Positions 5,411 through 14,147 of a DNA stretch of 25,783 nucleotides are shown here, in pieces. Origin of the DNA: Candidatus Heimdallarchaeota archaeon (GTDB lineage Archaea > Asgardarchaeota > Heimdallarchaeia > Heimdallarchaeales > Heimdallarchaeaceae); assembly GCA_021399395.1 (NCBI GenBank), contig JAAFKJ010000130.1, forward strand, positions 1-25,783, given 5' to 3'. The notes under the pieces were generated by a model. The model was not told the DNA's origin and did no database searches. It saw nothing but the letters and a program-made list of their open reading frames with translations. Positions within the stretch are counted from its first letter, which is position 1, and each line of letters starts with the position of its first letter. A program made the translations under genes and the position numbers.

Positions 5411-6196
5411 TTACGAACTAGTTTCCAAATTTAGTTCGATTTCTCTGTCTACGTTTTCTTTTATATCTCCTAAAATGTATTCCAAAACTTCGTTGTAGTC
5501 AACTTCAATTCGGAATAACCTTTTAAAAAATGGTAAGAGAGAGTTTAGATCCTTTCTTAGAATCCTATAAGCTCTTGATAGAGGTATCAGAGCTGATCCA
5601 TAAGGAACTGCATCTTTCAAAGCAAAACTTTTTGCTTGCAGGAAATCTATAGCATGTACTTTTTCGTCATGCCAAAGCAAATTATGTTCACTGAAATCTC
5701 CATGAACAAAATGAGCTTGAAACATATCATACAAAATCTCTATACACTCTTCTAGAACATCAGCTGGATCATCGAAAAAACTCTTGCTTAAATCTCTCAA
5801 TAATGGTGCTGGCCCTTCTTCGTCACCAATCAGTTCCATAGCGTAGCTAAATCCAGCATACTTGTATGGTTCAGGAACAGGTAATTTTGCTTGGAACATA
5901 TCTAGATTTTTATAATACTCTAGTTTTGCAAATTGCGATATAACCGCATATGGGTTACCTCGACGTGTGCCATGAATGACCCCTCTATGTGTAGTTTTGT
6001 AGAGTTTGTATGTTTTAACAGCAACAAATCGATCTTCGTTATCTATACCCCAGCAAACAAAAGCTTCTTTACCTTGACCAATTACTTGCTGAGCTACGAT
6101 AATAAGACCATTTTCGATAGCCTGAGCTATTGATTCATTTGTTGAGATCTCTTCGATTTCTTCATCTCTTCTTTCCAAATATTCTTTGTTTAACAC
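5411..6196 (-). CDS. RIO-family atypical Ser/Thr kinase
   Basis: GQGKEAFV P-loop, VAVKTY, MELIGD...PAPLL, HGDFSEHN and IDFLQA. Confidence 0.9.
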   Translation of the reverse strand: MLNKEYLERRDEEIEEISTNESIAQAIENGLIIVAQQVIGQGKEAFVCWGIDNEDRFVAVKTYKLYKTTHRGVIHGTRRGNPYAVISQFAKLEYYKNLDMFQAKLPVPEPYKYAGFSYAMELIGDEEGPAPLLRDLSKSFFDDPADVLEECIEILYDMFQAHFVHGDFSEHNLLWHDEKVHAIDFLQAKSFALKDAVPYGSALIPLSRAYRILRKDLNSLLPFFKRLFRIEVDYNEVLEYILGDIKENVDREIELNLETSS

Positions 6197-6286: not shown

Positions 6287-6367
6287 TTATAGTCCTTCTG
6301 AAGATGTCATAGTAGCGTGTTTGAAGCAAATTGATGGTTTAGTTGTTGTTTGTAATTCTGCATTCAT
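6287..6367 (-). CDS. Putative 26-aa leader peptide MNAELQTTTKPSICFKHATMTSSEGL upstream of the RIO kinase
   Basis: Strong SD GGAGGTG (6378-6384) 10 nt before the ATG, and a TATA-like TTTATTAA near 6415-6422; too short for the ORF track. Confidence 0.6.
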   Translation of the reverse strand: MNAELQTTTKPSICFKHATMTSSEGL

Positions 6368-6457
6368 TTGTCTATGACACCTCCTTTTAGTGTATTTGCA
6401 TGTTGTTTAGAGAATTAATAAATTTATCGCACTTGTAGTTATATGAAAAGAAGTAAG

Positions 6458-6533
6458 TGGTAGCTCCAGGATGATTCGAACATCCGCCACAGAGAATAAA
6501 TCTCTGTATCCTTGGCCACTAGACTATGAAGCT
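6458..6533 (-). tRNA. tRNA-Gln-like gene with UUA (ochre) anticodon and atypical loop; suppressor-like or non-translational tRNA
   Basis: 76 nt cloverleaf AGCTTCA TA GTCT AGTGGCCAA GGAT A CAGAG ATTTATT CTCTG TGGC GGATG TTCGAAT CATCC TGGAGCT ACCA; all four stems pair and CCA is encoded. Confidence 0.85.
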
Positions 6534-6610
6534 ATAATTTTGTTAAAATTTAACAAGTCTTTTTTAAGTTTGCTTTTGATAGATGAAATAACAGGTGAAA
6601 AATTGATCGC

Positions 6611-6808
6611 TTACGAATCTTCTTCTATAATTCGTTGCATGTAGATTTCACAATCTTTACACACAAGAAAATCATGTGATTCTTTGTCCTTATAGAATAT
6701 AGAGAACATCATTGGTTTTTCACATTTACCACATTTTATATCAGATTCTTCTTCAGAAACAAGTAGAAGATCTTTTACATCCACTTTTGGTGTGATATAG
6801 CGACTCAT
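6611..6808 (-). CDS. Small zinc-ribbon protein (CxxC...CxxC)
   Basis: CGKC and CKDC pairs; upstream SD AAGGAG. Confidence 0.7.
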   Translation of the reverse strand: MSRYITPKVDVKDLLLVSEEESDIKCGKCEKPMMFSIFYKDKESHDFLVCKDCEIYMQRIIEEDS

Positions 6809-6938
6809 ATTGAATAATCTCCTTTAAATTTTAGAATAGTTTAGTATATACTATAGCTTTTACATTAATATACATTATCTTTCAGAATCACTACAAAACA
6901 AACAGTATAAATATGGGTTAAGAATCTCGAGAAATAGA

Positions 6939-9751: not shown

Positions 9752-9825
9752 TGGTAGACCCGAGGCGATTTGAACGCCTGTCTCAGGATCCAGAGTCCCG
9801 TATCCTTCCGCTAGACTACGGGTCT
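9752..9825 (-). tRNA. tRNA-Gln(CUG)
   Basis: AGACCCG TA GTCT AGCGGAA GGAT A CGGGA CT-CTG-GA TCCTG AGAC AGGCG TTCAAAT CGCCT CGGGTCT ACCA; A1-U72. Confidence 0.97.
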
Positions 9826-12076: not shown

Positions 12077-12152
12077 TGGTAGTCCCAGGGAGATTTGAAC
12101 TCCCGGTACCGGATTCAAAGTCCGGAGTGTTTCCAGGCTACACCATGGGACT
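12077..12152 (-). tRNA. tRNA-Gln(UUG)
   Basis: AGTCCCA TG GTGT AGCCTGGAA ACAC T CCGGA CT-TTG-AA TCCGG TACC GGGAG TTCAAAT CTCCC TGGGACT ACCA. Confidence 0.97.
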
Positions 12153-12221: not shown

Positions 12222-14147
12222 TTATTTCTTTCCCCAAGAATCTCTCAATGTAATGATTCTGTTGAATACAAGATTTTCTTTTGAAGAATCCTCAATATCT
12301 ATCACATAGTATCCATTTCTTTCAAATTGGGATCTTGACCCAGACTCCTTTTCTTTGAGAAATGGTTCTACATAAGATTCTATTATGTTAATAGAGTCAG
12401 GATTGAGATAATCCTTGAATTCTTTTCCTTCTTCTGTGTCCATAGGATTTTCTTTTGTATATAATCTATCATATTGCCTAACTTCAACTTTTAGAGCATT
12501 ATCTGCAGACAACCAGTGAATAGTTCCTTGTACTTTTCTTCCATCAGGAGATTCTCCTCCTTTTGTTTCAGAATCATAGGTACAATGGATTTCTTTTATT
12601 TCCCCAGTTATTTCATCCTTAATGGTATCTTCATATTTGATGAAATAAGCGTATTTCAATCTAACTTCTTTACCTGGAGAAAGTCTATAGTAGTCGTCAG
12701 GAGGGTCTTCCATGAAATCTTCTTTCTCTATGAATAGATTTCTAGTAAATTTCACCTCTCTTGTTCCCATACTTTTATCTGAAGGATGATTTGGTACAGA
12801 GAAGACCTCTTCCTTATCCTCGGGATAATTTGTTATTACTAGCTTCAGAGGGTTAAGAACACTCATTACTCTAGGGCATCTTTTGTCCAAATCCTCACGG
12901 ATATAATGCTCAAGGATAGACATATCGATTAACTTCTCTCTTTTAGTGAAGTTTATTGCAAGGGAGAAGTTTCGGATAGCCTCAGGAGTGTATCCTCTTC
13001 GCCTCATACCTGCTATTGTAAGCATTCTGGGATCATCCCAACCATTGACATATCCTCCTTCAACTAGCATTCTCATATTTCTTTTACTAAGAACCATGTA
13101 GGATAGATTCATTTTAGCAAATTCGGTTTGCTGAGAATGATGTATGGGATTTCCTTCTTCGTCCTCTAACTGATCAATATACCAATCATAAAGGGGTCTA
13201 TGAACCTCAAATTCTAAAGTACAATTCGAATGAGTAATTCCTTCAATAGAATCTTCGAGCCCGTGAGCCCAATCATACATAGGATAAATACACCATTTAT
13301 CTCCTGTCCTGTGATGGCTTGCATGAAGGATTCTATAAATAATGGGGTCTCTCATGAGCATATTAGGATGAGACATGTCAATTTTGGCTCGGAGAACTTT
13401 TTCTCCGTTTTTAAACTCACCATTTTTCATCCTCTCAAAGAGGTCAAGATTCTCTTCAATGGGCCTGTTTCTATAAGGGCTCTCTTGTCCATGTTCAGTA
13501 ATAGTACCTCTCATCTCTCGTATTTCTTCAACGCTGGAATCATCTACGTAAGCCAATCCTTTTCTAACTAACTGGACAGCATATTCATAGAGTTGATCGA
13601 AGTAATCTGATGCAAAGAGCAATCTATCTTCATAGTCTACTCCTAACCAAAGTACATCTTTGATAATGGATTCAACAAATTCTTCCTCCTCTGTTAGAGG
13701 ATTTGTATCATCAAACCTAAGATTGAATTTTCCCCTGTATTCAAAAGCAAAGTTATAGTTTCGGTTTATAGAATAAGCATGGCCAATATGTAACCAGCCA
13801 TTTGGTTCCGGAGGGAATCGAGTATGGACTTTTCCGTCAAATCGACCTGTTCGATTGTGTTCCTCAATAATCTCTCTTATGAAATCAGCTTCTTCCTGAA
13901 CCTCTTTTTCCTTCTTTTGAAGAAGTTCTGGAAATTGTTTTTGTGCGAGTTGTTGTATTTCTTCAGCTGTTAATGAATTGATATAATCAACCTTATTTTC
14001 AATAATCTCTTTGATGCGTTTTGCATCCTTTCTTAATTCGGAATCAGCCTTAAAGACAAGACCCATGACAGGACCTACTTCTGCTTTCCCGTGTTCTAAA
14101 GCATTTTCAATAGCATGTTTTTCGCACATTTTTTCTACTGAATTCAT
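12222..14147 (-). CDS. glnS: Glutaminyl-tRNA synthetase: bacterial-type core with archaeal GluRS-like N-terminal domain
   Basis: TRFPPEPNGxLHIGH, LRFDDTNP, WCIYPMYD, ITHSxCTLEF, VLSKR, GWDDPRM, GKEVRL, GTIHW, QFERNGY and LRDSW match GlnRS end to end. Confidence 0.93.
   Translation of the reverse strand: MNSVEKMCEKHAIENALEHGKAEVGPVMGLVFKADSELRKDAKRIKEIIENKVDYINSLTAEEIQQLAQKQFPELLQKKEKEVQEEADFIREIIEEHNRTGRFDGKVHTRFPPEPNGWLHIGHAYSINRNYNFAFEYRGKFNLRFDDTNPLTEEEEFVESIIKDVLWLGVDYEDRLLFASDYFDQLYEYAVQLVRKGLAYVDDSSVEEIREMRGTITEHGQESPYRNRPIEENLDLFERMKNGEFKNGEKVLRAKIDMSHPNMLMRDPIIYRILHASHHRTGDKWCIYPMYDWAHGLEDSIEGITHSNCTLEFEVHRPLYDWYIDQLEDEEGNPIHHSQQTEFAKMNLSYMVLSKRNMRMLVEGGYVNGWDDPRMLTIAGMRRRGYTPEAIRNFSLAINFTKREKLIDMSILEHYIREDLDKRCPRVMSVLNPLKLVITNYPEDKEEVFSVPNHPSDKSMGTREVKFTRNLFIEKEDFMEDPPDDYYRLSPGKEVRLKYAYFIKYEDTIKDEITGEIKEIHCTYDSETKGGESPDGRKVQGTIHWLSADNALKVEVRQYDRLYTKENPMDTEEGKEFKDYLNPDSINIIESYVEPFLKEKESGSRSQFERNGYYVIDIEDSSKENLVFNRIITLRDSWGKK

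Follow-up and report, generated by a model that had tools for sequence, protein, structure and literature searches.

A tRNA-Gln-derived gene with a conserved body and a drifting anticodon loop: a candidate non-decoding RNA in Heimdallarchaeaceae

The 25,783-nucleotide stretch of DNA analyzed here (the window) is contig JAAFKJ010000130.1 (C37) of a metagenome-assembled genome (MAG) of a Candidatus Heimdallarchaeota archaeon (2.8 Mb, 201 contigs, 81.8% complete, 34.3% GC). Positions 6458 to 6533 of its minus strand hold a gene derived from tRNA-Gln(CUG) (variant P1) that carries UUA, a stop-codon anticodon. Comparison with its orthologues indicates that this variant is neither a dedicated ochre suppressor nor a freely decaying pseudogene, and that the UUA of the window is a lineage-specific state reached by drift rather than a selected stop-codon anticodon. 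The gene rather probably encodes an expressed tRNA-Gln-like RNA that does not decode and acts through proteins reading the tRNA body. According to the mechanism that we propose, a tRNA-Gln(CUG) paralogue would have become redundant once a second copy (9752-9825) took over decoding and, in one group of genomes (clade A, defined below), would have been neither lost nor left to decay. Purifying selection would hold the acceptor stem, the D-arm, the T-arm, the CCA, the anticodon helix, a promoter-like block and a T-tract, while loop positions 33-37 would drift freely and a small cap would form where A32 pairs with U38. Transcription and end processing would be those of a tRNA, and the RNA would fold into the L-shape; without reading codons, it would act via proteins that recognize only the tRNA body. 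We infer its transcription, its failure to decode and its action off the ribosome from sequence comparison. The best candidate partner would be the archaeal amidotransferase GatDE, which the genome encodes and whose recognition covers exactly the conserved parts and not the anticodon. Among the roles proposed by a first-pass annotation of the window, that of a tRNA mimic or decoy, or another non-ribosomal role, would fit best.

ARAGORN calls the gene as a 76-nt tRNA-Stop(tta) with the anticodon at position 35. It is one of three tRNA genes that this program finds in the window (6458-6533, 9752-9825 and 12077-12152), and all three lie on the minus strand. It belongs to the Rfam tRNA family (RF00005), with 49.2 bits against a cut-off of 29 (E-value of 5.2e-10 when 6400-6600 was searched and of 1.7e-9 genome-wide), and our own covariance model (R1) scores it at 97.9 bits. 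With the default fast filters and the gathering threshold, an Rfam run on the whole window reported only the other two tRNAs and missed 6458-6533. Therefore, automatic annotation pipelines may overlook this gene, which such a filter effect could conceal. In the cmscan alignment and the ARAGORN drawing, the acceptor end shows A1-U72, A73, an encoded CCA and a 7-bp stem. The D stem has 4 bp, including two G.U pairs, the anticodon stem 5 bp and the variable region 4 nt, and the T-loop is a normal UUCGAAU. The intact cloverleaf described by the first-pass annotation, with a D-arm like that of tRNA-Gln(CUG), is hence confirmed. Encoded CCA is the local norm in this genome, since 38 of its 44 ARAGORN tRNA calls end with it.

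The anticodon loop reads A32-U33-UUA-U37-U38. Canonical decoding loops have 7 nt, U33, a purine at position 37 and no Watson-Crick pair between positions 32 and 38. U33 is present in the variant, but position 37 is a U and A32 can pair with U38. In the RNAfold prediction, A32-U38 and A26-U44 lengthen the anticodon helix and leave a 5-nt loop, so that the abnormal A32 and U37 and the extended stem noticed from the letters alone were found again. The letters of the loop are identical in contig X3, which comes from another sample of the same study (6443-6900, 0 differences). The contigs of four runs were compared: X5 and X8, from two other studies, match the flank at 99% and end at 6524 and 6534, at the 5' edge of the gene, and X6 stops short of it. 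The ends of X5 and X8 may result from strain variation or from shared tRNA k-mers. Confirmation of the loop by independent assemblies is only partial, because the contigs from other studies stop at the gene edge.

A BLAST search with the 76 nt of the gene against 40 relatives gave matches in 5 of the 24 genomes of the genus and in none of the 16 genomes of other families. Three of them (G017, G001 and G021, 86-90% identity) carry the same variant gene and two (G018 and G012, 76-77% identity) a normal tRNA-Gln(CUG). A 25-nt pattern spanning the T-arm and the acceptor stem recovered the same three genomes and four metagenome contigs; a viral origin was rejected, as this pattern had 0 matches in viral contigs. 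At the anticodon position of the orthologues, ARAGORN reads GTT, GAT, CTT or four letters, ATTT, within an 8-nt loop. Five lineages thus have five loops: AUUUAUU in the window, AUGUUCU in G017 and contigs L010 and L013, AUGAUCU in G021 and L011, AGCUUCU in L012 and the 8-nt AUAUUUAU in G001. A32 and U38, which close the loop, are constant in all five. The four 7-nt loops have a pyrimidine, U or C, at position 37, and one of them (AGCUUCU) has G instead of U at position 33. UUA is found in one lineage out of five, which is not the conservation expected of a suppressor. Since UC occupies positions 36-37 in three of the five loops, two of which have the whole UUCU at 35-38, the comparison suggests that UUA is a derived state. 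The first-pass annotation had named random loops together with broken stems in orthologues as the mark of a pseudogene; the loops are indeed unrelated, and the stems are not broken. Synteny with the RIO kinase is kept in clade A, and the sequence of the loop differs between all five lineages.

The body of the gene evolves quite differently from the loop. Over the ten pairs formed by the five clade-A lineages, the 56-nt body (the gene minus the anticodon arm and CCA) shows 3-7 differences per pair (5-12%); 1-4 of the 7 loop positions and 0-2 of the 10 in the anticodon stem differ. In the RIO gene, four-fold degenerate sites are only 44-54% identical, i.e. saturated, for a protein identity of 79-87%. 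In an alignment of the five variants and four clade-C genes, 96.6% of the pair cells hold standard pairs and 5 of 22 pairs have changed on both sides. The covariation score was reached by 0 of 500 shuffles, and slid controls had 27-50% paired cells. For instance, pair 30:40 is A-U, U-A, U.G or G.A in clade A. The body conserved next to saturated neutral sites and the compensating stem changes support the earlier proposal of selection on structure rather than decay. A neutral pseudogene should accumulate substitutions over its whole length at the neutral rate, have broken stems and lose its promoter. Here, the 3-7 differences over 56 nt stand against about 50% at four-fold sites, the stems are paired, and the putative promoter described below is retained in all five lineages. 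A freely decaying pseudogene therefore appears hard to reconcile with the rates and the covariation. The observed pattern is the one expected of a functional pseudo-tRNA, with a fold under selection and an anticodon that is not, and it has a parallel at a second locus.

Furthermore, a block of about 35 nt upstream of the gene (6556-6593, minus strand) is nearly constant across the five lineages. It includes TTAAAAAA, which resembles a transcription factor B recognition element (BRE) followed by a TATA box, at about 6560-6567 (-34 to -27), and which is kept in five of five lineages. TTAAAA or TTTAAA starting between -50 and -22 was found for 25 of 42 tRNA genes of the genome versus 164 of 5000 random 60-mers, and the block would function as a promoter. 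On the other side of the gene, sequences past the CCA cannot be aligned between lineages except for a T-rich tract directly 3' of the CCA (6445-6457, minus strand), which is T-rich in all five and would act as a terminator.

On the minus strand, the variant lies between a small open reading frame (ORF) upstream (6611-6808), encoding a 65-aa CxxC (zinc-ribbon) protein, and a RIO-type kinase gene downstream (5411-6196, Pfam RIO1), of which 21 of the 25 genomes in the genus have an orthologue. These two genes served as synteny anchors, and the order small ORF, tRNA-like gene, RIO is the same in clades A and C. ARAGORN found a tRNA adjoining RIO at 7 of the 21 RIO loci (three variants and four tRNA-Gln(CUG)). 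Among the 14 loci without a call, that of G001 has its variant 3.6 kb from RIO, outside the locus, and in that of G008 the T-loop of the tRNA-Gln(CUG) contains an insertion of 32 nt. In a maximum-likelihood tree of RIO built on 20 rows, from which the partial L031 and L034 were excluded, an outgroup (G004 and G003) branches first, followed by clade C and then by the sister clades A and B, with a support of 99/96 for clade A and weaker support for the other forks. The five genomes of clade C (G023, G012, G018, G005 and G008) have a normal tRNA-Gln(CUG) at the RIO place, and no other CUG copy was found in them. The seven genomes of clade B have a clean gap of about 260-290 nt, without tRNA or promoter block, and retain the counterpart of 9752-9825. 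Clade A (the window, G017, G021, G001 and contig L012) has both copies, and the 9752-9825 copy is 99% identical (about one difference over 74 nt) among its four genomes. Because the gene order is shared, 6458-6533 is, on synteny, the orthologue of the normal tRNA-Gln(CUG) of clade C, and the promoter-like sequences upstream of the two genes also align. The tRNA-Gln(CUG) duplicate thus appears to have been resolved in three ways: kept as a working copy in clade C, lost in clade B and altered in its loop in clade A.

Moreover, a covariance model made from the alignment and run on 47 genomes of the order revealed a second locus of this kind. The seven clade-B genomes (L039-L041 and L077-L080) carry a 75-nt tRNA-Gln-like gene between the tRNA-Gln(UUG) that lies beside GlnRS and the tRNA-Gln(CUG). 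Its loops have 6 nt (UUUAGG, UUUUGG or UUUCGG), its body is conserved, its stems covary, it ends in CCA, and a promoter-like block of its own is conserved as well. In G043, from another genus of the family, the gene at the corresponding place (L066:1331-1404) has an anticodon arm that ends in a 5-nt UUUAU loop closed by an A-U pair. ARAGORN reads this gene as 'Stop(tta)', its loop is 2 nt short by the model alignment, and it has an A1.A72 mismatch. In the outgroup genome G004 (L081), the gene at that place still has UUG, together with A32 and U38 and the A1.A72 mismatch; it ends in CUA rather than CCA, and 31 nt are inserted in its T-loop. No such gene was found in the five clade-C genomes, nor a third one in the window, where the model run without filters finds only the three known genes. 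The capped copy is present only at the RIO locus in clade A and only at the GlnRS locus in clade B; this complementary pattern, which rests on two clades, is suggestive of a shared role. A putatively selected tRNA body combined with a free capped loop, at two independent loci of a single archaeal family, is a rare comparative signature. A body under selection and a loop that is free at both loci point to a tRNA-derived RNA that would work off the ribosome.

Several observations, however, weigh against a maintained non-decoding RNA, and most of them would also suit a slowly decaying pseudogene, i.e. a redundant tRNA-Gln(CUG) copy that was hit first in its loop and that is functionless without being erased yet. 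The loops resemble AT-biased drift. The body of the variant evolves faster (3-7 of 56) than the working paralogue (99% over 74 nt). Two lineages have a U13.U22 mismatch, and G001 combines its 8-nt loop with a G.A mismatch in the anticodon stem. These mismatches and the rate look like relaxed constraint. The gene was cleanly lost in clade B and no aberrant copy is present in the five clade-C genomes (79-91% complete); therefore, the RNA would be dispensable in close relatives. The 13 sequencing runs listed for this DNA include none that is recorded as RNA. In addition, the comparison covers five lineages, with the CUU and the 8-nt loops each coming from a single assembly. Clades B and C, which lack the RIO-locus variant, also keep GatDE, and the putative link with GatDE is a fit of known recognition rules to the conserved parts. 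Nevertheless, the body differs by 5-12% where four-fold sites differ by 46-56%, the promoter-like block is conserved in five lineages out of five, stem changes keep pairing, and the same pattern is found at the second locus over a deeper time span. We consequently regard the slow decay of a functionless copy as unlikely, though it keeps some credit.

The gene could also be a cis-acting tRNA-like processing signal, at which a cut by RNase P or RNase Z would separate or mature the mRNAs of the small ORF and RIO. The small ORF, the tRNA-like gene and RIO follow one another closely in a single orientation, and conservation falls on the parts that end-processing enzymes read. However, a promoter-like motif of the tRNA type and a T-tract belong to the gene itself, and RIO is preceded by a TATA-like box and a leader of its own, conserved even in clades that lack the tRNA. 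Moreover, the anticodon helix is conserved as well, and end-processing enzymes do not need it. A processing signal is therefore improbable as the reason for the conservation.

Little can be said in favor of the weak or conditional suppressor that the first-pass annotation had put forward, an ochre suppressor that GlnRS would charge with Gln through U35 and that would occasionally read UAA. The window lineage does combine U33 and UUA in a 7-nt loop with an intact tRNA-Gln body ending in CCA, and a GlnRS is encoded 5.7 kb away. In E. coli, ochre suppressors have arisen from tRNA-Gln(UUG), and recognition by GlnRS relies heavily on U35. However, UUA occurs in one of five orthologous lineages, where it looks derived relative to ..UUCU. 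An anticodon made only of A and U, in a loop with U37 and an A32-U38 pair, should decode very poorly. Furthermore, TAA is neither depleted nor read as sense: the genome has 1436 stop-to-stop frames of 250 codons or more, of which TAA closes 751, TAG 375 and TGA 310. The genome hence employs the standard stops, TAA foremost, and the statement that TAA and TAG are natural gene ends in the window extends to the whole genome. For instance, the small ORF just upstream of the variant terminates with a TAA that aligns with the stops (TAA or TGA) of its orthologues. Taken together, the single-lineage UUA, the non-canonical loop context and the use of TAA as main stop make suppression a quite improbable reason for the retention of the gene. 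This removes a false lead, as no stop-codon recoding is indicated in this Asgard archaeon. A second suppressor candidate of the genome was also rejected: C70:18401-18509, which ARAGORN calls 'tRNA-Stop(tta)' with an intron, reads as a tRNA-Lys(UUU) with an intron after position 37 (37/38), and the ARAGORN list of the genome contains no other tRNA-Lys.

Very improbable, finally, is a dual-identity mistranslating family whose lineage-specific GUU, GAU, CUU and UUA would insert Gln at other codons, since, despite the different anticodon-like triplets carried by one tRNA-Gln body and a bacterial precedent, tRNAProX (PMC10404621), the loops are non-canonical everywhere (A32-U38, pyrimidine 37, one G33, one 8-nt loop), the 5-6-nt loops of the second locus cannot present a triplet normally, and no dedicated synthetase isoform adjoins the gene, all clades having a single GlnRS.

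Other explanations of the conserved region were tried and rejected. A match of 6400-6600 to archaeal sRNA41 (Rfam 20.5 bits, E-value 0.26) was taken as chance. Conservation due to an overlapping protein gene was set aside, as only ORFs of 26-57 aa overlap 6458-6533. No consistent reverse complement of the lineage loops, as expected for a local antisense or T-box-like target, occurs within 1.5 kb on each side, and the 7-mers are absent in three of five lineages.

The window encodes a bacterial-type glutaminyl-tRNA synthetase (GlnRS; 12222-14147, minus strand; TIGR00440, 674 bits for a cut-off of 425.8). A GlnRS above the cut-off is present in 15 of 25 genomes of the genus, as one gene per genome and in all clades, including those without the variant, which speaks against the partnership with an unusual GlnRS that had been suggested for the gene. 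The relatives named for this protein are proteins from Heimdall and Asgard MAGs, including ones named Heimdallarchaeaceae. The first matches with bacterial names are from Dehalococcoidia/Chloroflexi (62-65% identity) and are about 80 residues shorter, the archaeal protein having an extra N-terminus of about 80 aa. GatD is above its cut-off in five of five tested genomes (G000:C159:1182-2384 in this genome) and GatE in four of five (here a fragment cut by the contig end, G000:C159:43-1056). GatDE, the archaeal Glu-tRNA-Gln amidotransferase, contacts the acceptor stem, the T stem-loop and the D-loop, and recognizes A1-U72 and not the anticodon (PMC2330236). The two normal tRNA-Gln genes of the window are the working tRNA-Gln(CUG) paralogue (P2; 9752-9825, minus strand; ARAGORN, Rfam 60 bits) and a tRNA-Gln(UUG) directly downstream of GlnRS (12077-12152, minus strand; ARAGORN, Rfam 62.2 bits). 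GlnRS, these two genes and the spare copy are thus clustered, with GatDE elsewhere in the genome, and these archaea hold both routes to Gln-tRNA. This contradicts the statement of a 2022 review that all known archaea lack GlnRS (PMC9499178), and it bears on the replacement of the archaeal indirect pathway by a direct, eukaryote-like one. Among the literature matches listed for GlnRS in Asgard or Heimdall archaea, none addressed it, judging by titles and the beginnings of abstracts.

A broader hypothesis, which we hold to be doubtful, is that Heimdallarchaeaceae with a bacterial-type GlnRS and a retained GatDE maintain an 'anticodon-capped' tRNA-Gln body as a non-ribosomal ligand of the old indirect pathway, and that this body arose twice, at two loci, by loop closure of a spare tRNA-Gln. 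If so, the capped RNA could be, for instance, a regulator of or a sink for GatDE or glutamyl-tRNA synthetase (GluRS), or a carrier of Glu or Gln outside translation. Asgard archaea would then provide their first described case of a non-decoding tRNA under selection, and this RNA would represent a present-day intermediate between indirect and direct Gln-tRNA synthesis, in a transition that eukaryotes have undergone as well.

Some other features of these loci deserve mention. In G001, about 3.6 kb with two large paralogous ORFs (more than 400 aa each; L003:1578-3077 and L017:1-1259) separate the tRNA-like gene from RIO. The idea of an integration site was rejected, as no integrase ORF is evident in this insertion when read by eye, without a family search. 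Upstream of RIO (about 6287-6400, minus strand), a TATA-like TTTATTAAT followed by AGGAGGTGTCATAG is kept in all clades of the genus, including those without the tRNA gene. The reverse complement of AGGAGGTGTCATAG lies about 55-65 nt further, and the pair encloses a conserved micro-ORF of about 26 aa (6287-6367). This element looks like a Shine-Dalgarno/anti-Shine-Dalgarno hairpin or a leader-peptide element. In addition, insertions of 31-33 nt occur in the T-loop of several tRNA-Gln genes of the genus (L029/L063 in G008, L081 in G004 and L083 in G015), with a further insertion of 21 nt at the anticodon loop in G015. ARAGORN missed these insertion-bearing genes, and the insertions are probably non-canonical introns.

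Among the top literature matches for Asgard, suppressor, UUA and pseudo-tRNA themes, judged by titles and the beginnings of abstracts, no description of the gene at 6458-6533 was found. The main text of a 2026 preprint on Asgard tRNA introns contains 0 occurrences of suppressor, stop codon or tRNA-Gln. Nevertheless, the variant can be compared with several known systems. The pseudo-tRNA 'tRNA-Other' of Bacillus cereus is described as having a non-canonical anticodon region, no role in translation and a cellular role (PMC3399842). Like it, the variant would be an inactivated tRNA-like gene recruited to another function, which is putative here. However, 'tRNA-Other' belongs to a bacterium, lies beside a genomic island and is expressed as part of a longer regulatory RNA (PMC3399842). 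In contrast, the variant is an archaeal stand-alone unit derived from tRNA-Gln, with a promoter-like motif of the tRNA type, CCA and a T-tract. The stop-reading tRNA-Gln(UUA) of ciliates that use code 6 and the ochre suppressors of E. coli have a canonical loop, with a purine at 37 and an open 32-38. The variant shares with them the tRNA-Gln body, UUA at 34-36 and U35. However, ciliates use TAA as a sense codon, whereas in the present genome TAA serves as the chief stop, and the variant has a capped loop and orthologues with other triplets.

The tRNAProX/ProRSx system of Streptomyces offers another likeness, in that one tRNA body bears the anticodons of other amino acids in different strains (PMC10404621). 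However, the anticodon loops of tRNAProX are functional, its decoding is proven and a dedicated synthetase isoform is encoded next to it (PMC10404621); the variant shares none of these traits. As for the substrates of GatDE, the variant conserves the parts that this enzyme contacts, namely A1-U72, the acceptor stem, the T-arm and the D-loop (PMC2330236). However, such a substrate first needs glutamylation by GluRS, which probably requires the anticodon. Finally, the non-proteinogenic tRNA-Gly of Staphylococcus serves cell-wall synthesis; it differs in its T-arm and keeps a normal anticodon, since GlyRS needs it. Like this tRNA, the variant is an extra tRNA paralogue with an off-ribosome role, here putative, but, unlike it, it has given up the anticodon loop.
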